Of a stretch of DNA of 64,000 nucleotides, positions 1,412 to 20,704 are shown piece after piece; position 1 is the stretch's first letter, and every line of letters starts with the position of its first letter. The DNA is from Escherichia phage mobillu. The position numbers and the translations under genes are program-made. Location: the sequence record MN850622.1, one strand, 5' to 3'. The notes beneath the pieces are model-generated. The model saw only the letters and a program-made list of their open reading frames with translations. It was not told the origin of the DNA and did not search any database.

Positions 1412-2047
1412 ATGAAAACTACACCAATCACTATCGCTATTGACGCAATCGTAAAACAAGCTTCATCTCTTGCCACTATGGCTAAAGTAATTAGTCAAAA
1501 CCCTGCTCGGTATAATGCTATTCTTGAAACTCTTCGTCGCCCTGGACTGAGTAATTATGAAAGTCGTGTAATTATTACAGGTGTTGGTAAGAACGCTAAT
1601 ATCGCAACTAAAGCTTCCGAGACTTTTGCTTCACTAGGTATTCCTAGCATGTATTTGAACACTGGGCATTATTCTCATGGTGACGCAGGATTTATTGCAC
1701 CTAATGATGTATTAGTTCACATCAGCCGTTCTGGTAAGACTGAAGAAATGATAGGTGTTGCTAAACATCTTCGTATGATTCGTCCTCAGGTTAAACAGAT
1801 TCTGTTACATTGTAACCCTGACATTCCACAAGAATACGAAGCCCTTTTTGATTACTCTTTCTGTACAGGCATCGCGGTAGAGGTTGATGAGAATTCTCTG
1901 GCTCCGACCATGTCCACTACATTGTTGTTAGCGCTTATCGATACGTTTGCTATCAACCTTTCGTCTGAACGTGGATTTACCTCTAATGATTTCCTTAAGT
2001 TCCATCCAGGCGGTGCACTAGGTGCCATGTTACGAGGCGAACAATGA
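1412..2047 (+). CDS. SIS-domain sugar-phosphate isomerase (arabinose-5-phosphate isomerase KdsD/GutQ-like, SIS domain only)
   Basis: SIS signatures VIITGVGKNANIATKASETFASLG and HISRSGKTEE; 211 aa; sits in the T4 imm slot between 43 and 42. Confidence 0.6.
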   Translation: MKTTPITIAIDAIVKQASSLATMAKVISQNPARYNAILETLRRPGLSNYESRVIITGVGKNANIATKASETFASLGIPSMYLNTGHYSHGDAGFIAPNDVLVHISRSGKTEEMIGVAKHLRMIRPQVKQILLHCNPDIPQEYEALFDYSFCTGIAVEVDENSLAPTMSTTLLLALIDTFAINLSSERGFTSNDFLKFHPGGALGAMLRGEQ

Positions 2048-2228: not shown

Positions 2229-3914
2229 ATGAAAAAAGCTGTTATTCTTGGTGCTGGATTGGCAACTCGTTTGTATCCAATAACGCATCATATTCCTAAG
2301 GTGCTTGTTAACTATAAACAAGACACTATTCTGAGCAATTTGTATACAATTTATTCTGACCTTGGCGCAGATGAAATTATTGTAGTAGTTCATTCAAAAT
2401 TTGCTGAAACTGTTCGAGCTTATTGTGAGCAAGAAGGGTTCAATGTGACTATTCGTACAGTTGATGAAGCGTATGGTTCTGCTTATGCTCTTGCTAAATT
2501 ACACAAAGATTTAGACGGCCATAATGTAATTGTTAACTGGTGTGATATTATTCCCGATTTTGGTTCATGGTCTTGGAATGTTAACGCAATCTATGTTAAG
2601 GGTGACGAATGTCGATATAATTTCGACGGTGAAAATATCACTAACGTAGGTTCAACAGGTGGTAATGTTGTAGGAATTTATCAGTTCAAAGACTGGGAAT
2701 TCTATATGGGTTCTACTGATGAGGAAATTCATGAATACTGCAAAGGACGTGATTTCGTAGAATTCCTTTACGGCAGCGCATTCAATAAATCAGAGCTTAT
2801 GAATATAATTGATTTAGGTGATATGCCTAAACTTGAAAAGGCTCATGAAGTTCGTGAACTTAATCGTAGTTTTAATGCAGTTGAAATTGGTGAAGAAACT
2901 GTAACTAAATTCGCATTAACCGAACAGGGACGAGCTCTTCAGAAAGATGAGATTTCGTGGTATTTGAAAGTGAAATCAGATTCAGTTCCTCAGTTAGTTT
3001 CTGTTAATGAAAATAACTTTGAAATGGAACGCATTAAAGGTAAGCCGGCATTTGAATATATTAAATCAAAATCAAGTCTTGCTCGTCCACAAATTATTGA
3101 TGCAATTTTAGATGCACTGAAATTCAGCACAGACACTTATTTTGTAAGTCCTGAAACTGTTCGTCGTGATTTCACTAAAGAATTCTATACGAAAGTTATT
3201 GATCGTTGTGAAAGCATTCAACCATTGATTGATTCATTTGGTAAAATCACACATGTGAACTACACTAAGATTGGACGTCTGAAGCCAATGCTGAAACAAG
3301 CTTTAGAACACCTTATTCGTTATCATAACCGTTCTCAGGGACAGTACTCTGTTATTCATGGTGACCCGAACTTCAGTAATACTATGATTACTGATAACGG
3401 CGAAGTCAAGTTTATCGACCCTCGTGGATATTTTGGCGAAACCAAGATTTACGGGCCAAAATTGTATGATGAAGCTAAAGTGCTTTATGCTGTTTCAGGT
3501 TATGATGAATTCAATGCTAATCCGACCTGGGGACAGTTTACTATTGATGAAACAACTTGTAATGTGACTATTAACATCAATCCATTAGTTTACAAATATG
3601 GAAAGATGAGTTCGTTTAACGAGTATCATCATTTGGCTGTAGCAATTATCTGGATTGCATTAGGTGGTTATTTCAAGAATAATCCACTTAAAGCGGTAGC
3701 CGCATATTATAAAGGTATGGAACTTCTGACTAAGCAATTACGTAACATGGGCCGTGTACTTCAAGACGGCTCTATTAGTTATGACGTAGCAGAACCTGTA
3801 ACGGCTACTCTGATTACAAAAAATCCTGGTAAATGGGTACTAACTGATAAAGAAACTGGTGTTTCCTATCGTCCAATCGGTGGCGATATCACTCATCAAT
3901 GGGAACGAATCTAA
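2229..3914 (+). CDS. bifunctional sugar-phosphate nucleotidyltransferase / phosphotransferase (APH or choline-kinase-like kinase domain)
   Basis: N-terminus MKKAVILGAGLATRLYPIT has the GxGxRL motif of sugar-1-P nucleotidyltransferases; C-terminal HGDPNFSNTMI plus IDPRG resemble the Brenner motif and DxG of APH/choline-kinase fold. Confidence 0.6.
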   Translation: MKKAVILGAGLATRLYPITHHIPKVLVNYKQDTILSNLYTIYSDLGADEIIVVVHSKFAETVRAYCEQEGFNVTIRTVDEAYGSAYALAKLHKDLDGHNVIVNWCDIIPDFGSWSWNVNAIYVKGDECRYNFDGENITNVGSTGGNVVGIYQFKDWEFYMGSTDEEIHEYCKGRDFVEFLYGSAFNKSELMNIIDLGDMPKLEKAHEVRELNRSFNAVEIGEETVTKFALTEQGRALQKDEISWYLKVKSDSVPQLVSVNENNFEMERIKGKPAFEYIKSKSSLARPQIIDAILDALKFSTDTYFVSPETVRRDFTKEFYTKVIDRCESIQPLIDSFGKITHVNYTKIGRLKPMLKQALEHLIRYHNRSQGQYSVIHGDPNFSNTMITDNGEVKFIDPRGYFGETKIYGPKLYDEAKVLYAVSGYDEFNANPTWGQFTIDETTCNVTININPLVYKYGKMSSFNEYHHLAVAIIWIALGGYFKNNPLKAVAAYYKGMELLTKQLRNMGRVLQDGSISYDVAEPVTATLITKNPGKWVLTDKETGVSYRPIGGDITHQWERI

Positions 3915-4300
3915 TGCACCGTGTAGAAAACATGCTTAATCTTTGTTTTGATGTCGATGATTGTATAACAGAGTGGAATAACAATCGTGATTACGTGAAC
4001 TTCAAACCAGACGTCGAAATGGTGTCTGCCATTAATGCCCTGTATGATGCAGGGCATACCATAACGCTTTACACTGCTCGCGGTATGAAGTCAGTAGGTC
4101 CTGGTCGTATAGCAATTGACATTCTCCCAAGTCTGATTCAGAACTTGGCAAACATTGGCTTGAAGTACCATAATTTGCTAACACATAAACCAGTATATGA
4201 TTGGATTATCGACGACAAAGCTATGCGTCCTGACGAATTCAAAGCTCTTATGAATAAAGGCGAATTCGAAACATTTAAATCATATAAACCAAATCTATAA
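3914..4300 (+). CDS. HAD-superfamily-like small phosphatase
   Basis: N-terminal FDVDDCIT (DxD-type motif I) and C-terminal WIIDDKA (motif IV-like); TAATG overlap with upstream gene; alternative in-frame start at 3899. Confidence 0.45.
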   Translation: MHRVENMLNLCFDVDDCITEWNNNRDYVNFKPDVEMVSAINALYDAGHTITLYTARGMKSVGPGRIAIDILPSLIQNLANIGLKYHNLLTHKPVYDWIIDDKAMRPDEFKALMNKGEFETFKSYKPNL

Positions 4301-4357
4301 TAATTTAAGTAAGACCTGCAAAAACCATCGCATCAATTAACGTGAGATGCAAAAAAA

Positions 4358-5518
4358 ATGAATACTTTTAAAATCGGAACGAATTTTGATTTAGCTCTTC
4401 TTGATAAAATCGTAGAGCTCAATAAAACTTATCCTAATAGCTTGATAAACGAAGTATACGGCTCTACAAGAGAAATGGCTTTTGTAGCAGCCAGACCTGA
4501 TTTTAGGCTTCCTGACGTTGACAAAAAGATGTTAGAAGATTACGTTAAACGTTGTAACGAATTAGGTATTTGCTTTAACTATACACTCAACACGATAAAT
4601 CCTGGTTCAAAAAGAGAACTAGTTGAGTGGAAGAAGAAAGCTATTCAGGATTATGTTCAGTATCTTTGGTCAATAGGCGTATGGCGTATTACTATCGCTA
4701 ACCCTGTTGTTATGGAAATTGTTCGTGAAGTCAATAAAGACATTGAGATTGAAGTTTCAACAATTCTACATGTCGATGCTGTAACTCAAATCAAATACTT
4801 GCATGACCAGTATAATATCAAAAAGGTCTGCTGTGGAATTCATAAGAACCGTTCAGTTTCTTTCCTGAAGCGTGCAGCAGAGTTTTGCAATAAGAACAAT
4901 ATAATATTTGAAGTTCTTGTAAATGAGTTCTGTTCTAATGCTGGTAAAGGGTATACAACACATTGTAGCTATCGTGACTCTTGCTATATTTTCCATAGTA
5001 CTGATGTTACAGCTGATGATGCTAAATCCTTAAACGGATATCCTATGCAGCACTGTATTAAAGCTCGTGATACAGACCCATTTAACTGGTTGAGAACTCG
5101 TTTTGTTCGTCCTCAAGATTTGAAACTTTATAATGATATTGGTATCACTCAATTCAAAGTTTCAGGACGTACAGGTAGCACAGACTACATTTTGAAAGTT
5201 CTTGAAGCATACGCTTCTGAAAAGTTTGAAGGTAATTTGTTAGAACTGTGGAAGCCTTTAGAGACTATTTTCACTCTTGAAAATGAGACCGAGTTTTCAC
5301 ATACGGTAAATATTGAAACCTCTTTGTTAGATGGCTTTTTAGAAAAAAGGTGGTTCAGACATCCAGATTTCGATTGTGCTAATGAAATCTGCGGGACGAC
5401 GTGTACATATTGTGAAAGATATTATAAACGTCAGTTATCTAAAAATGGGTTATCAGAAAATTCTATATCTATTATTGATATAACTAACTCTGATGACGCT
5501 TTGAGGTACCCAGAATGA
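4358..5518 (+). CDS. hypothetical protein, possible peptidase-U32-like fold
   Basis: 386-aa ORF with RBS; Cys-containing segment EFCSNAGKGYTTHCSYRDSC loosely resembles the U32 family signature; assignment tentative. Confidence 0.35.
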   Translation: MNTFKIGTNFDLALLDKIVELNKTYPNSLINEVYGSTREMAFVAARPDFRLPDVDKKMLEDYVKRCNELGICFNYTLNTINPGSKRELVEWKKKAIQDYVQYLWSIGVWRITIANPVVMEIVREVNKDIEIEVSTILHVDAVTQIKYLHDQYNIKKVCCGIHKNRSVSFLKRAAEFCNKNNIIFEVLVNEFCSNAGKGYTTHCSYRDSCYIFHSTDVTADDAKSLNGYPMQHCIKARDTDPFNWLRTRFVRPQDLKLYNDIGITQFKVSGRTGSTDYILKVLEAYASEKFEGNLLELWKPLETIFTLENETEFSHTVNIETSLLDGFLEKRWFRHPDFDCANEICGTTCTYCERYYKRQLSKNGLSENSISIIDITNSDDALRYPE

Positions 5519-5754
5519 TTTCTAGAAAAACTTTTAACCACCAACTTAATGAAGAGATTTTGACTATGAAAATTAACAGCAACGAACAAATTCTTAAAAA
5601 GGCCCTTATGGGCCTGTTTGAAACTAAAGCGGCTAAAGTGATTAAAGGACCTGTTCAATTGGAATACTACGCTGATGCATTTCTTCATAGTGTTCTTGGA
5701 AGTATCGATGCTGAAGCTTTACGTTATATCAACATTGTCAAGAAATTCAAATAA
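5515..5754 (+). CDS. hypothetical protein (79 aa)
   Basis: ATGA overlap with upstream gene; no recognisable motif. Confidence 0.45.
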   Translation: MISRKTFNHQLNEEILTMKINSNEQILKKALMGLFETKAAKVIKGPVQLEYYADAFLHSVLGSIDAEALRYINIVKKFK

Positions 5755-5796: not shown

Positions 5797-6513
5797 ATGG
5801 GAAAACATAACACAATGAAATATATCAAAGCCGCAGATTTTCAAACCGCATTTAAAGCAGTCAATCGTGAAATTTTAGAAAACCCGGAATTCGTAACTGA
5901 TTCTCGTATTGGACGTTGTAATGAAATTGGGTCTATGACAGTAGTTGTTGACACTCCATCATCATTCAAAATGACCGACCCACGTATTAACCGCATCTCT
6001 TATGAATACGCCGAAGATTTCTGGAAGTTTATGATTTCTGGTGGTACCAACGCAGAAGAAGCGTTTAAGGCATATCCTAATGTCGCTAAATTTATTTCTA
6101 AACCAAAATCAGATGTTTTGCCGGCGAACTTCAACACTTTCTACGGTCCTCGCATTGCGGCCCAATTACCAGCTCTTCTAAAAGAACTTAAAGAGAAGCC
6201 TAACTCCCGAAGAGTTGTGTTCCAAATTCTAGAAAGTTCTGATCAGGCTTTGCTTGATTCAGACGAAACGCTTGAATATCCATGTACTGACTCAGTGACT
6301 TATTATATTCGTGATGGTAAGCTTTATACCCACTGTCATATGCGTTCTCAGAACTGTGCTGTTGTTATGCAGTTGGATTTTTATCTCCAAGGAAAATTAC
6401 TTCATTATATCGCTAACGAATGTGGTGTAGAAGTTGGTGATTATACTCATACCATGGTAAGTGCCCATGTGTTTGAACGTGATTTTGATTATGTTAAAGG
6501 ATTCCTTGACTAA
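5797..6513 (+). CDS. 42: dCMP hydroxymethylase (thymidylate-synthase fold)
   Basis: Matches remembered T4 gp42 blocks: PNSRRVVFQI, YPCTDSVTYYIRDGKLYTHCHMRSQN, VSAHVFERDF; position between uvsX and 43 as in T4. Confidence 0.85.
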   Translation: MGKHNTMKYIKAADFQTAFKAVNREILENPEFVTDSRIGRCNEIGSMTVVVDTPSSFKMTDPRINRISYEYAEDFWKFMISGGTNAEEAFKAYPNVAKFISKPKSDVLPANFNTFYGPRIAAQLPALLKELKEKPNSRRVVFQILESSDQALLDSDETLEYPCTDSVTYYIRDGKLYTHCHMRSQNCAVVMQLDFYLQGKLLHYIANECGVEVGDYTHTMVSAHVFERDFDYVKGFLD

Positions 6514-7412
6514 TGGCTATTTTCCGCGTACCAATCTTGAGTATGCGGTCTTATGAAACTGGACAGTATGCTATCCTTAAGGATGGCAACTTCCAACTTC
6601 ATTTGCACCGTGCTAATCCAGGTGATGTGATTACATATCCACGTAATGCATCTGATATTAAAGAATGCGAACGTCTTTTCCCAGAATTTAAGTTTGTTCC
6701 ATTATGGTATAAAGATAACGCGTATAACACTCGTAAATATTTCTGGTCTGAAAATGAATTTGTGGTTGATTCATTAATTGCTTATTATGATTGTGATTTT
6801 CTAATCACAGATATCACCGGATATGACGGTGCTTTTGATGTAGAATTCAATTTCAATATCACTGCAGACCCTAATAAACCACGTTTTTATATTGACGAAT
6901 TCTTAAAAACCGACATGTTGTCGGTTAATCGTTCACTTCAAACTACTGTGTTGAACGAACGTCAAAAAGAAGTGCTGGTTAACGCAGGTGCAGATGGTAA
7001 TAAGATTATCGTAACGCAGAAAGTTATACGTCCTTCCATCATGCAGCGTCTTGTAGGTGATTTGGCTCCTATTCATCTAGATGGTATTTTTCATCCATTT
7101 CGAATTAGCGACCCGTGCTATCGTTTTGAACAAGTGGTTGAATGTGCAATTCAATTAGGCCAACCGCTTTATATAACCGATCCAAATAATAGCTTCGACA
7201 GAAATAAGTATCCTGAAGAAGCGCTGATTCGAATTTTTAAACCAACTAAAACTGAGTACTATCAAATTCTTAAAGGACGTCCGAAAATTCAATATTTCGA
7301 AAATCCTGAAGAAGTATTCCATCCAGGTCTTGGTGAGTTCATCTACTTTAATGCTTTAATTTCTTCGCCGTATAATATACCTAAATATGAAGATGTCGTA
7401 ATCGAGGAATAA
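6513..7412 (+). CDS. hypothetical protein (299 aa) occupying the T4 beta-glucosyltransferase slot
   Basis: TAATG overlap with gene 42; no recognisable motif; positional replacement of beta-gt. Confidence 0.5.
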   Translation: MAIFRVPILSMRSYETGQYAILKDGNFQLHLHRANPGDVITYPRNASDIKECERLFPEFKFVPLWYKDNAYNTRKYFWSENEFVVDSLIAYYDCDFLITDITGYDGAFDVEFNFNITADPNKPRFYIDEFLKTDMLSVNRSLQTTVLNERQKEVLVNAGADGNKIIVTQKVIRPSIMQRLVGDLAPIHLDGIFHPFRISDPCYRFEQVVECAIQLGQPLYITDPNNSFDRNKYPEEALIRIFKPTKTEYYQILKGRPKIQYFENPEEVFHPGLGEFIYFNALISSPYNIPKYEDVVIEE

Positions 7413-7413
7413 A

Positions 7414-7962
7414 ATGGCTAAAATTATTTTAGTAGATGGCCCAGATAATGCTGGTAAAACAACTTTCATTAATGACATAATGGAAATTAGTGAAAGATAT
7501 GTAAAGATTGATTTCCCTAAACGAACAGTTGATGGGCGTTTCGATGTTAAGTCTCGAAATGAAGTTGGCTGCTTCGAAACGATGTTGAATTATTTAGACC
7601 CTACTAAGATTTATCTGTTAGACCGTGGATATATTAGTAACTGGGTTTATGGACGTATTCGACAAGATGCGGACTCGGTTCTTGACGTTTATGAACAGGA
7701 TTATGTTCGTCTTTGCCAAAACCATGATGTGTTCACAATTATTTTAACACGTAACGAAATGACTGAAAGTTTTGAAGACGACCTTATTACTTTGTCTTCA
7801 TTCGGTTTTAATACAGTCATTTCACATTTTGAAGAGTTTGCAATTCATAACAAAATCCAAACGTATCAATTACTTAATCATGATGGTGCTAACAAAGTTA
7901 TAGGATTTAATGCAAGCGAACGTAATTATTTGATTACAGAAATTATCAAATGGGCTCGTTAA
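7414..7962 (+). CDS. P-loop kinase, thymidylate-kinase-like (dNMP/nucleoside kinase fold)
   Basis: P-loop IILVDGPDNAGKTTF and DR-motif LLDRGYISNWVYG resemble Tmk family. Confidence 0.5.
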   Translation: MAKIILVDGPDNAGKTTFINDIMEISERYVKIDFPKRTVDGRFDVKSRNEVGCFETMLNYLDPTKIYLLDRGYISNWVYGRIRQDADSVLDVYEQDYVRLCQNHDVFTIILTRNEMTESFEDDLITLSSFGFNTVISHFEEFAIHNKIQTYQLLNHDGANKVIGFNASERNYLITEIIKWAR

Positions 7963-12110: not shown

Positions 12111-12479
12111 ATGAAAAAATTAATCGCTTTAGCAATGGTATTTGGATTAACCGGATGTGGTGCCCATGGCTTTATCCCTAATAATGTTGGCCAACTGATT
12201 TATAATCCGAATGTTAAACAGTACGACCAACCTAAAGTTGAAGTGGAAGACCCGGTTACTGTAGGTAATCGAATGATTCAAGCTGATGCCCATGCTCAAC
12301 GTTATCGTGACTCTGATACTGTAGCATTGTCAAAAGAACAGCGCGTTAAAGAACATTGCTTACAGGCTACTGAAATCGCATTCATTCGCTATGTTGAAAC
12401 AACCGGTAAAGAGCCTACCCAGAAACAAATCGCGAATAACTACGTCCAGTGTATTGAACGTTTAAACAAATTTAATTAA
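12111..12479 (+). CDS. predicted lipoprotein (122 aa)
   Basis: Signal peptide MKKLIALAMVFGLTGC with lipobox L-T-G-C. Confidence 0.6.
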   Translation: MKKLIALAMVFGLTGCGAHGFIPNNVGQLIYNPNVKQYDQPKVEVEDPVTVGNRMIQADAHAQRYRDSDTVALSKEQRVKEHCLQATEIAFIRYVETTGKEPTQKQIANNYVQCIERLNKFN

Positions 12480-12482
12480 TTG

Positions 12483-12512
12483 GTTTACACCAAAGTTAAA
12501 ATAAGATACTAT
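12483..12512 (+). promoter_or_regulatory. T4-type early promoter
   Basis: GTTTAC 12483-12488, 18 bp spacer, TACTAT 12507-12512. Confidence 0.55.
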
Positions 12513-12540
12513 AAACATAACAAATCAAGAGGAAATTAAC

Positions 12541-12789
12541 ATGGAATTATTCGTAGCTAGTTCAGTAGCAGTTTTAATCGCAGGTATTGGTTCAATCATC
12601 ATTTACATGTTGCCTTGGGTAATCGCACTTATTCGTGGCACAAAAAGCACAACAGCAATCTTCTTTGTATCTTTACTCTTTAACTGGACGATGGTTGGTT
12701 GGATTGGAACTTTAATTTGGTCTATCATTGCCGAAAAGAAATCGGCTCAGCAGCCTCAACAAGTAATTATTATTCGCGAAAAAGAATAA
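12541..12789 (+). CDS. small inner-membrane protein, superinfection-immunity (Imm) family-like
   Basis: Two hydrophobic segments; LFNWTMVGWIGTLIWSI resembles the superinfection-immunity family motif; 82 aa, similar in size to T4 Imm. Confidence 0.45.
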   Translation: MELFVASSVAVLIAGIGSIIIYMLPWVIALIRGTKSTTAIFFVSLLFNWTMVGWIGTLIWSIIAEKKSAQQPQQVIIIREKE

Positions 12790-12793
12790 ACTT

Positions 12794-12823
12794 GTTTACA
12801 TTATAGATGGACTATAGTATAGT
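12794..12823 (+). promoter_or_regulatory. T4-type early promoter
   Basis: GTTTAC 12794-12799, 18 bp spacer, TATAGT 12818-12823; -10 region embedded in inverted repeat GGACTA...TAGTCC. Confidence 0.55.
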
Positions 12824-12852
12824 AGTCCTATCAAATCAACTAAGGAGTTAAA

Positions 12853-13146
12853 ATGAAAAAGTTATCATTGGCAGCAATCTTACTTGCAGTATCATGTGCA
12901 CCGGCTCCAGTTACGGCAGGTTATGATAAAGACCTCTGTGAGTGGTCAATGACTGCAAATCAAGAAGATGTTGAACAACAAATCTTCTCTGATATCATGA
13001 ACATCACTAAACGAGACCGTCCTAATATGGTTAATAAAGTTGTTGAACAACTTAAGTCTGGCGGTATCATGCAGTACAACTATGTTTTGTATTGTGACCC
13101 TAATTTCGATAACAAAGATATCGTAACCGAAATCACAGGTGAATAA
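12853..13146 (+). CDS. sp: Spackle (Sp), periplasmic superinfection-exclusion protein / lysozyme inhibitor
   Basis: Signal peptide plus AGYDKDLCEWSMTA...MQYNYVLYCD matching remembered T4 Sp; 97 aa. Confidence 0.85.
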   Translation: MKKLSLAAILLAVSCAPAPVTAGYDKDLCEWSMTANQEDVEQQIFSDIMNITKRDRPNMVNKVVEQLKSGGIMQYNYVLYCDPNFDNKDIVTEITGE

Positions 13147-13147
13147 T

Positions 13148-13798
13148 ATGATTTATTATATGCACAAAAATGCGCCATTTAAATATGGTAAATTTCCTAA
13201 TGCACAATGTTATAATATAACGCCGAATGAAAATAATAACGGATACCATCTCGGTGTAATTTTTGTAATTGTTAAAGATAACGAAATAGTTGCCTGGGCA
13301 GATTTTAAAGGTACAACATATGATGTTAATCCTGTGCCTTTCACATATTACAATATAATGGATTTGGCATATGATTATAATTGGTTTAATCATGACACGT
13401 TGGCTCATATTGAAGGTGTAGGATTTGACATCTCTTATTCTAGCTATTCATTATGTCCTATGAGCCGAGCTCACGGTAAAGATGTATCATATCTTTCAAT
13501 TCGGAAACGTGTAAACTTCAAACGTAGTACAGAGTATGTTGGTGGACTCTTTGTTAAAGATAATAAAATAACCCGTATTAGTTATCCTCTAAGTGTAGGC
13601 CAAAAAGATGTTGATGTTGATTTGGACTTAACTGAAAATAACATTAATCGTATTGCTTCTGTATATTTTGATATCGATGAAAAAATTGTAGTGTGTGGAT
13701 ACGAATTACCACCTGAAGAAAAGGCCGAAGCAATTGAAGTCGAATTAGAAATTTCTGTTGATGACCAAATATTTAATGCATTTATGAATCGAGGTTAA
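13148..13798 (+). CDS. hypothetical protein (216 aa), AT-rich coding sequence
   Basis: ORF with AGGTGA RBS; first ATG at 13148 (track start 13139 is GTG); visibly AT-rich codons. Confidence 0.55.
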   Translation: MIYYMHKNAPFKYGKFPNAQCYNITPNENNNGYHLGVIFVIVKDNEIVAWADFKGTTYDVNPVPFTYYNIMDLAYDYNWFNHDTLAHIEGVGFDISYSSYSLCPMSRAHGKDVSYLSIRKRVNFKRSTEYVGGLFVKDNKITRISYPLSVGQKDVDVDLDLTENNINRIASVYFDIDEKIVVCGYELPPEEKAEAIEVELEISVDDQIFNAFMNRG

Positions 13799-19957: not shown

Positions 19958-20704
19958 ATGTTATCAAATAATAAAATTAACAAAATCAATCGTCGTCTTG
20001 ACCACACCAGAGCTTCTGCGAAGAGACGCTCTAAGGATTTTAACTTAGACTTTAATTACCTTAAAAACATTCTTGATCAAAAGGTCTGCGCTTACTCAGG
20101 TGAATCTTTCAATAACTCTGTTGAAGGTGAGAAATTATCCTTAGAACGTTTTAATAACGATATCGGCTACATTAAAGGTAATGTTATCCCGGTTAAGAAA
20201 AAATATAACACGGCTCGTTCTGATTTAACATTAGAAGAACTTATTGAGAAACGTGACGCTGTTGCAAGACGTATCGCTAATCCTTCTGCCCGTAAAGTAG
20301 AGAAACTTAATCTCGACGAGAAGAAATGGGCCCAAATTAAAAAGGTTTATGATACTATTTTAAAAATCCGAGCAAAACGTGAAAATCGTGTTAAGCATAT
20401 GGCGAACATGATGAAAAATCAACCTTTATCTAACGAATCTAAACTTAGAATTGTTGCTTTGAAAGCACGCATTAATGGCTCACATCAAGCAGAAGGCCAT
20501 GAACTTACTAAACTCAACGTTCTTCTTAAAGGCTCTGACTGGAAAACTAAAACTAAATTAACTGACGCTGAATCGCTTTTCGATACATATGATAAAGTTA
20601 TCCAAGGTCTGCAACGCTTTGAAAAGATTGGTTTCATTGGTAAATTAAAATTGAAACGTGGCTTACCACTTAGCGCATCATTATTCCAACTGATTAAAGG
20701 TTAA
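19958..20704 (+). CDS. hypothetical protein (248 aa), positional equivalent of T4 srd
   Basis: Location between the mod genes and dda; highly basic; no confident motif. Confidence 0.55.
   Translation: MLSNNKINKINRRLDHTRASAKRRSKDFNLDFNYLKNILDQKVCAYSGESFNNSVEGEKLSLERFNNDIGYIKGNVIPVKKKYNTARSDLTLEELIEKRDAVARRIANPSARKVEKLNLDEKKWAQIKKVYDTILKIRAKRENRVKHMANMMKNQPLSNESKLRIVALKARINGSHQAEGHELTKLNVLLKGSDWKTKTKLTDAESLFDTYDKVIQGLQRFEKIGFIGKLKLKRGLPLSASLFQLIKG

Follow-up and report, generated by a model that had tools for sequence, protein, structure and literature searches.

How could a phage whose hosts are gut bacteria, which live largely without oxygen, build a hypermodified DNA when the first step of the modification requires O2? 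The question is raised by a gene of Escherichia phage mobillu (sequence record MN850622.1), of which a stretch of 64,000 nucleotides was analysed here (the window). The gene is the orthologue of RB69 ORF050c, called gp50 hereafter, and it lies among the genes for arabinosyl-5-hydroxycytosine DNA, a pathway published in 2025-2026 with an O2-requiring first step; an O2-independent hydroxylase would close this gap. Our analysis showed that gp50 is a genuine enzyme of the U32 family. From family and gene context we infer, with somewhat more confidence than doubt, that it hydroxylates cytosine at C5 independently of O2 and with the help of prephenate; this inference takes in the reaction as well as the substrate level, the dependence on prephenate and the anaerobic role. 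The gene itself is known and annotated, and its functional reading is, as far as could be checked, unpublished.

The biochemical frame comes from Lee et al. (NAR 2026, PMC13326640), who reported that RB69 DNA bears arabinosylated 5-hydroxycytosine in complete replacement of cytosine, and that mononucleotides receive their hydroxyl group from gp48, a homologue of thymidylate synthase (ThyA) that binds flavin and, in 18O2 labelling, incorporates 18O from O2. In the same work gp55, gp52:53 and gp51 lead to uridine diphosphate (UDP)-arabinofuranose, and gp46:47 is the first arabinosyltransferase. It is precisely between the phosphatase gene gp51 and the O2-dependent gp48 gene that the gp50 gene has been inserted. 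RB69 also encodes the anaerobic ribonucleotide reductase NrdD/NrdG.

gp50 Is a Member of the U32 Family

The 386-residue open reading frame (ORF) at 4358-5518 is present exactly as an earlier, sequence-only reading had given it, and the weak resemblance to the U32 family noted there proved to be real. The Pfam search which that reading had proposed as a check gave a significant match to PF01136 (Peptidase_U32) at residues 94-286 (E = 7e-11; 42.2 bits, gathering cut-off 22.4), and profile-profile alignment (hhalign) against TrhP, RlhA and UbiU reached a probability of 96.3%. In this line, the predicted structure, an AlphaFold2 model with a predicted local distance difference test score of 92, is a triosephosphate isomerase (TIM) barrel like that of the solved member Mk0906 of Methanopyrus kandleri (PDB 5D88), its best fold match, and no unrelated fold was matched. 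Mk0906 shares 11-14% identity with gp50 and is without the C-terminal Cys domain. When PDB sequences were searched with the single sequence and with a profile, the sole match was yeast BIM1 (E = 0.004), which was discarded as spurious.

The window corresponds to an RB69-like Mosigvirus, in which the gp50 gene is 99.4% identical at the DNA level to RB69 ORF050c (RB69p050, annotated as 'peptidase') and the genes around it follow the order of RB69 gp55 to gp45, in the interval from DNA polymerase to uvsX. The gene was found in 176 phage records with megablast and in 221 with tblastn (81-100% amino-acid identity), and its product matches PHROG 5757 from end to end (886 bits). It is also the best conserved protein of the cluster, with 81-88% identity between genera compared to 43-83% for the others.

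Within the family, gp50 falls outside the subfamilies of studied function. RlhA (YdcP), responsible for 5-hydroxycytidine-2501 in E. coli 23S rRNA, belongs to the same Pfam family and shares the proposed base chemistry at cytosine C5, but it has 653 residues, a DUF3656 region and distant C-terminal cysteines (C580/C611), and acts on a ribosomal precursor. In contrast, gp50 is a protein of 386 residues (against ~650) matched by PF01136 only, without DUF3656, whose alignment stops before the C-terminal half of RlhA and which shows an altered Cys spacing, a CX4CX3CX2C tail and a DNA-modification cluster as its genomic home. The TrhP (YegQ)/TrhO system for 5-hydroxyuridine-34 (ho5U34) of tRNA has two enzymes for one and the same hydroxylation of a pyrimidine at C5, a U32 protein that depends on prephenate and not on O2, and another that needs O2; gp50 and gp48 would be paired in the same way according to our proposal. 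The substrate there is a tRNA uridine, however, TrhO is of the rhodanese type and not a ThyA homologue, and TrhP carries a C-terminal extension that finds no counterpart in gp50 (20% identity, C-terminal part of TrhP unaligned, no match to the NCBIfam TrhP model). As for UbiU and UbiV, these U32 iron-sulphur (Fe-S) proteins take oxygen from prephenate, as revealed by 18O labelling, and replace flavin/O2 monooxygenases under anoxia, and the gp50/gp48 pairing as proposed mirrors the UbiI-H-F/UbiU-V pair of E. coli. They differ in forming a heterodimer that works with the lipid carrier UbiT on a prenylphenol, whereas gp50 has no UbiV or UbiT partner: no second U32 gene or SCP2 gene occurs in the cluster, and the NCBIfam UbiU model (NF047963) gives just a weak, sub-threshold match at residues 57-158 (18.5 bits, with an equivalog cut-off of 440).

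A last comparison concerns RB69 gp48 and its counterpart gp80 of phage DLP3, to which the same product (5-hydroxy-deoxycytidine monophosphate, 5-hydroxy-dCMP), the same pathway and the same gene cluster are ascribed as to gp50 in our proposal. Fold and cofactor are unrelated, with a ThyA fold, flavin mononucleotide (FMN) and O2 on the one side, and a TIM barrel, predicted Cys-ligated metal sites and presumably prephenate on the other. PF00303 is not matched by gp50, which could only be an analogue, and not a member, of the ThyA-type 5-hydroxy-dCMP synthases.

The Cysteine Sites of gp50

Residues C158, C192, C203, C209, C233, C340, C345, C349 and C352 are invariant among 121 close homologues. 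The sequence-only reading had seen a possible U32 signature in EFCSNAGKGYTTHCSYRDSC (residues 190-209, nt 4925-4984) and in a further Cys downstream, which is C233. This suggestion holds in so far as hhalign pairs E185, C203, C209 and C233 of gp50 with E162, C170, C177 and C197 of TrhP, and as the RlhA counterparts of E185, C203 and C209 are E161, C169 and C176, the last two being essential cysteines of the Fe-S-binding motif. The pattern is not the canonical CX6CX15CX3/4C. The spacing is CX5C in place of CX6C, and an insertion of ~10 residues bears C192. Among 121 wider representatives, down to 28% identity, C192, C203 and C233 are kept at ~100%, while residue 209 is either Cys (62%) or His (37%). 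In a plain MAFFT alignment that included the paralogues of E. coli, both key motif cysteines had seemed to be deleted, a result overturned by the profile-profile alignment.

The second group is the C-terminal CX4CX3CX2C motif, which lies in a confidently modelled region and is conserved in all the close homologues and in 93-95% of the wider family. Its C345-X3-C349-X2-C352 portion looks like the motif of radical S-adenosylmethionine (SAM) enzymes; because of the fourth invariant cysteine (C340) and the C-terminal position, we do not read it as a SAM site and treat it as a putative auxiliary metal site. Altogether, eight to nine cysteines are conserved in two groups, and gp50 is probably an Fe-S enzyme.

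Chorismate Mutase as a Genomic Partner

Prephenate is the product of chorismate mutase, whose gene comes directly after the U32 gene in other genera of the Straboviridae. It overlaps the U32 stop codon in Serratia phage LC53 and Enterobacter phage Entb_45, and the six small U32 neighbours tested (LC53, Entb_45, TG1, Thanatos-2, phiP4-3 and 92A1) all match Pfam CM_2, with conservation of the invariant Arg, Arg, Lys, Glu, Ser and Gln, which we take to be the catalytic residues of AroQ. By tblastn, this chorismate mutase was detected in 51 phage records, all from taxa carrying the U32 gene, and among the matches listed every one is in the cluster, adjoining either the U32 gene or the gp48 homologue. 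The two genes have changed place within the cluster of the Shewanella phage Thanatos-2, where they lie beyond the kinase gene, still together. Moreover, a fusion of 3-deoxy-D-arabino-heptulosonate 7-phosphate (DAHP) synthase and chorismate mutase occurs beside the U32 gene in four metagenomic lineages, and DAHP synthase alone in a fifth; the phages with the fusion appear to boost the flux of the shikimate pathway towards prephenate. A different use of a phage chorismate mutase, feeding a CmoA-type carboxy-SAM synthase as in phage S-B43, was discarded, as no CmoA or CmoB was present in 79 U32 loci, the exception being a weak generic methyltransferase match in one lineage.

In the window, gp49 occupies the slot that is filled or adjoined by chorismate mutase in other genera. 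Homologues of gp49 lie between the U32 and chorismate mutase genes of TG1 and 92A1, and the motif EYYxDAFxHS is common to gp49, TG1 gp051 and 92A1 CDS0039, so gp49 may be a U32 accessory protein. A degenerate chorismate mutase was also considered and rejected (no Pfam match, hhalign probability 0.15%), and the same fate befell the ORF at 19958..20704 (+; 248 aa), for which a custom hidden Markov model (HMM) gave three weak, biased fragments and Pfam no match. The 114-aa 'chorismate mutase domain protein' of LC53 (L003:7158-7502) has an N-terminal stretch resembling the N-terminus of gp49, and looks like a gp49 remnant fused to a chorismate mutase.

The Proposed Reaction

The U32 enzymes studied so far have all been linked to prephenate-dependent, O2-independent hydroxylation, with 5-hydroxycytidine as the product of RlhA; prephenate has been demonstrated as the oxygen donor of UbiU/V, and genetic evidence shows that it is needed by RlhA, which also depends on Fe-S biogenesis, and by TrhP (the 2024 PNAS paper among the sources). 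Where the sequence-only reading had suggested a nucleic-acid- or sugar-modifying enzyme in a modification island, the gene context points to the nucleobase, hydroxylated at C5, and away from the sugar. According to our proposal, gp50 would hydroxylate C5 of a deoxycytidine nucleotide without molecular oxygen, with prephenate as the oxygen donor and the Cys-ligated clusters passing on two electrons, as suggested for UbiU/V. The most likely substrate would be free dCMP, with DNA as a less likely alternative, and the resulting 5-hydroxy-dCMP would then be phosphorylated, incorporated into the phage DNA and arabinosylated. Since there is no phage chorismate mutase in the window, prephenate in mobillu would be supplied by PheA/TyrA of the host. 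In this way gp50 would be the anaerobic isofunctional partner, or back-up, of the FMN/O2-dependent gp48, and would enable the phage to make its hypermodified DNA under the anoxic conditions of the gut.

A hydroxylation of cytosine after replication, on the DNA itself and not on dCMP, as RlhA and TrhP act on RNA polymers, would fit all the gene-context evidence equally well, and the characterised nucleic-acid U32 enzymes do work on polymers. We nonetheless regard this variant as unlikely and favour a nucleotide-level substrate, because the phage deoxycytidine triphosphatase (dCTPase) is expected to remove dCTP, leaving no unmodified cytosine for replication, because cytosine is reported to be completely replaced, and because the U32 gene is tied to nucleotide kinases (including a glycosyltransferase-kinase fusion) and further to dCMP deaminase, dUTPase and NT5C, a linkage that speaks for nucleotide-pool metabolism. 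Besides, the additional domains that RlhA and TrhP have at their C-termini are missing from gp50.

U32 Loci beyond the Straboviridae

Metagenomic phage contigs are rich in homologues of the U32 protein, with identities of 37-58%. The ORFs neighbouring the U32 gene were classed with HMMs built from the window proteins, for 31 distinct non-Straboviridae lineages. A gp45-like kinase was found in 24 of them and a gp46:47-like glycosyltransferase in 23, in 13 of these within 1.5 kb of the U32 gene; the assignment of the glycosyltransferase was checked by blastp (E = 7e-13 to 3e-9) and by a phrog_3891 match in 7 of the 10 proteins tested. The remaining functions of the cluster were rarer, with a nucleotidyltransferase/kinase in 12, an arabinose-5-phosphate isomerase in 9 and a chorismate mutase in 6 of the 31. 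A gp48-like gene was found within 10 kb of the U32 gene in none of the 31 lineages, and a collection-wide scan for gp48 relatives returned no contig of these lineages. With a broad ThyA HMM over 41 such loci (~715 kb), a single ThyA-family gene was recovered, and it is taken as an ordinary enzyme acting on deoxyuridine monophosphate because it keeps the equivalents of Asn177 and Asp169. The minimal modules made of kinase, glycosyltransferase and U32 gene hold no other candidate to make the acceptor hydroxyl. In other loci the U32 gene adjoins genes for dCMP deaminase, dUTPase, NT5C or deoxynucleoside kinase.

The U32 gene of other phages takes the place on the glycosyltransferase/kinase side that gp48 holds in RB69 and RL38J1. 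Such an arrangement would be a case of non-orthologous displacement, where the slot beside the glycosyltransferase and the kinase holds a ThyA-type FMN/O2 hydroxylase, a U32 enzyme (in some cases accompanied by a source of prephenate) or both. More tentatively, the U32 enzyme plus a phage source of prephenate may make up a self-contained, O2-independent route to 5-hydroxypyrimidine deoxynucleotides, which would back up the ThyA-type enzyme in phages of Enterobacterales and would be the only hydroxylase in many phages of strict anaerobes. The hosts of the U32 carriers are facultative or strict anaerobes. Among species-representative genomes, U32 relatives were found in metagenome-assembled genomes of Erysipelotrichales, Oscillospiraceae, Romboutsia, Gastranaerophilaceae and Clostridia, and in one Phocaeicola isolate; several of them again adjoin a glycosyltransferase and a chorismate mutase, and none a ThyA-like gene.

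Distribution within the Straboviridae

All the 221 records with the U32 gene are from phages of Enterobacterales or Shewanella. Homologues of gp48 have a wider spread, with 373 phage records that include those of Acinetobacter (57) and Rhizobium (20), and none of the Acinetobacter and Rhizobium/Agrobacterium phages with a gp48 homologue appeared among the U32 matches. Two phages without the U32 gene, Acinetobacter phage Mokit and Pseudomonas phage PspYZU05, have the gp48 homologue immediately beside the phosphatase gene, and RL38J1 has just the triad of hydroxylase, glycosyltransferase and kinase. In the Dhakavirus CLB_P2 a P-loop kinase (L012:5468-6004) fills the slot between the phosphatase and gp48 genes, whereas the RB69 kinase lies downstream of the glycosyltransferase.

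Points against the Proposal and Alternative Readings

Several observations count against an O2-independent hydroxylase. Dhakaviruses such as CLB_P2 infect E. coli with gp48 and without a U32 gene, so the latter is an accessory and not an obligatory gene for gut coliphages, and the correlation between U32 and hosts is confounded by phage phylogeny. No chorismate mutase was found in the window with the custom HMM, nor by tblastn in other Mosigviruses, where gp49 is present instead. The canonical CX6CX15CX3/4C motif is kept at three of its four positions (C203, C209 and C233), the third aligning with G228, and the MAFFT register differs; the invariant C192, just upstream, could substitute for the missing cysteine. 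The search for ThyA-type genes covered only 10 kb around the U32 gene, plus one pattern-limited scan. By the account of the 2024 PNAS paper, no U32 protein had until then shown direct hydroxylase activity in a reconstituted in vitro system, and the accessible literature yielded no biochemical or genetic test of gp50. Lastly, Table 1 of Lee et al. (PMC13326640) lists gp50 as a 'sugar or heterocycle reductase', with 5D88 as the fold match.

This entry is the sole mention of gp50 in that paper, which neither discusses nor tests it, and whose discussion names the RlhA and TrhP/TrhO RNA routes as 'other pyrimidine hydroxylation pathways' and draws no connection to gp50. The Bas46 transposon-mutagenesis preprint contains no essentiality data on the gene, and the Thanatos and Durham-collection papers do not mention it. 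In the searchable literature, of incomplete coverage, no U32 protein or chorismate mutase was linked to arabinosyl-5-hydroxycytosine modification.

What the current labels imply is an enzyme acting on the sugar, that is, a reductase or epimerase of an arabinose phosphate or nucleoside diphosphate-sugar intermediate. Apart from the entry of Lee et al., the Durham-collection paper names an 'epimerase' among the sugar genes of the cluster, gp50 does sit among genes of sugar activation, and TIM barrels are common in sugar-phosphate enzymes. However, the isomerase, AfhE and AfhF suffice for the published route to UDP-arabinofuranose (relayed in PMC13326640), and Acinetobacter phage DLP3 makes tri-arabinosyl-5-hydroxycytosine without a U32 gene. 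Kinase-glycosyltransferase-U32 modules exist without arabinose genes, and sugar chemistry offers no rationale for an association with chorismate mutase and DAHP synthase. To our knowledge, moreover, no U32 member acts on sugars, and we consider a sugar substrate quite unlikely.

Given that the nearest characterised relatives are RNA hydroxylases, gp50 might be one too, like TrhP or RlhA, tuning translation through phage or host tRNA or rRNA and unrelated to the DNA modification; this is highly improbable, with a location in DNA-modification clusters that is kept across unrelated phage families and differing gene orders, no DUF3656 or U32 C-terminal domain, and scores far under the NCBIfam equivalog cut-off. 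The collagenase-like peptidase of the database product names (GenBank records and PHROGs use 'peptidase' and 'collagenase-like protease') deserves hardly any credence, since the names are inherited from a family whose catalytic type is unknown and whose studied E. coli members are hydroxylation factors, and a protease has no rationale in a nucleotide/sugar pathway and leaves the coupling to chorismate mutase unexplained.

Implications

If the hydroxylase assignment of gp50 is true, DNA precursors would join rRNA, tRNA and ubiquinone as substrates of the prephenate-dependent U32 hydroxylases, and, with a nucleotide as substrate, gp50 would be without precedent among U32 enzymes in acting on a small soluble molecule, which would make prephenate-dependent hydroxylation accessible in vitro. 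The chorismate mutase and DAHP synthase genes of phages would be explained. Moreover, the signature of U32 protein, phrog_3891 glycosyltransferase and kinase could serve to predict hypermodified DNA in uncultured phages of anaerobes. On the more tentative reading of a self-contained O2-independent route, O-glycosylated 5-hydroxypyrimidine DNA would be widespread in phages of strictly anaerobic gut bacteria. DNA modifications of this kind decide the sensitivity to restriction enzymes, CRISPR and type IV defence, and with it the behaviour of therapeutic phages in the gut.

Features of the Cluster and of Related Loci

The coordinates of the features discussed are collected in Table 1. In the window gp52:53 (561 aa) and gp46:47 (299 aa) are single intact ORFs, each of which is split in two in the RB69 reference record; these splits have been ascribed to sequencing errors (PMC13326640). 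A sigma-70-like sequence, TTTAAA-16-TATAAT, lies at 4274-4301 (+), 57 nt upstream of the gp50 start codon; in a promoter and terminator scan around the gene, the number of sites was no higher than in shuffled sequence.

Table 1. Positions of gp50, its motifs and the neighbouring genes in the window, and of the fusion genes in metagenomic lineages
Feature	Position	Strand	Description and basis
gp55 orthologue, arabinose-5-phosphate isomerase (SIS domain)	1412..2047	+	Pfam SIS; RB69 annotation
gp52:53 orthologue, bifunctional nucleotidyltransferase/kinase (AfhE-like)	2229..3914	+	Pfam NTP_transferase and kinase-like matches; PMC13326640
gp51 orthologue, HAD-type sugar-bisphosphate phosphatase (AfhF-like)	3899..4300	+	RB69 annotation; PMC13326640
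gp50 orthologue (RB69 ORF050c)	4358..5518	+	386 aa, ATG start, TGA stop; U32-family TIM-barrel protein
Cys-rich segment of gp50, residues 190-233 (C192, C203, C209, C233)	4925..5056	+	putative [4Fe-4S] site, counterpart of the U32 motif
C340-X4-C345-X3-C349-X2-C352 of gp50	5375..5413	+	C-terminal motif; putative second metal or Fe-S site defining the subfamily
gp49	5515..5754	+	79 aa, Cys-free; ATGA overlap with gp50 stop codon (translational coupling); phrog_8601
gp48 orthologue, thymidylate-synthase-family 5-hydroxy-dCMP synthase, FMN and O2 dependent	5797..6513	+	Pfam Thymidylat_synt; PMC13326640
gp46:47 orthologue, DNA arabinosyltransferase 1 (phrog_3891), acceptor the 5-OH of 5-hydroxycytosine	6513..7412	+	PHROG; PMC13326640
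gp45 orthologue, thymidylate-kinase-like nucleotide kinase	7414..7962	+	phrog_761; PMC13326640 Table 1
DAHP synthase-chorismate mutase fusions	L048:8411-9430, L051:7302-8354, L052:8332-9384, L062:11079-12194		PF00793 and C-terminal PF01817

Some of the loci beyond the Straboviridae show further arrangements. A phrog_3891 glycosyltransferase and a thymidylate-kinase-like kinase, which are separate neighbouring genes in RB69, are fused in one protein of 605 aa (L046:2594-4408). Another locus (L009:13227-14360 and 12160-13185; also L010 and L075) encodes a second, very divergent U32 paralogue beside a radical-SAM/SPASM gene, at ~4 kb from the first U32 gene and with methyltransferase, NT5C and deoxynucleoside-kinase genes near; this paralogue scores 21.7 bits with Pfam, just under the cut-off, and has its own C-terminal Cys cluster. 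In phage contigs of up to 466 kb (L008:7447-9939 and L019:6504-8826), a dCMP deaminase gene is followed by the U32 gene and by that of an unannotated protein of ~250 aa with a faint resemblance to nucleotide-sugar epimerases; no glycosyltransferase is nearby, and the U32 substrate there may be a uracil nucleotide. Finally, directly upstream of the U32 gene in 16 metagenomic loci (e.g., L052:9335-9979) there is a protein of ~215 aa whose only match is a weak one to HAD hydrolases and which is probably the counterpart of the gp51 phosphatase.

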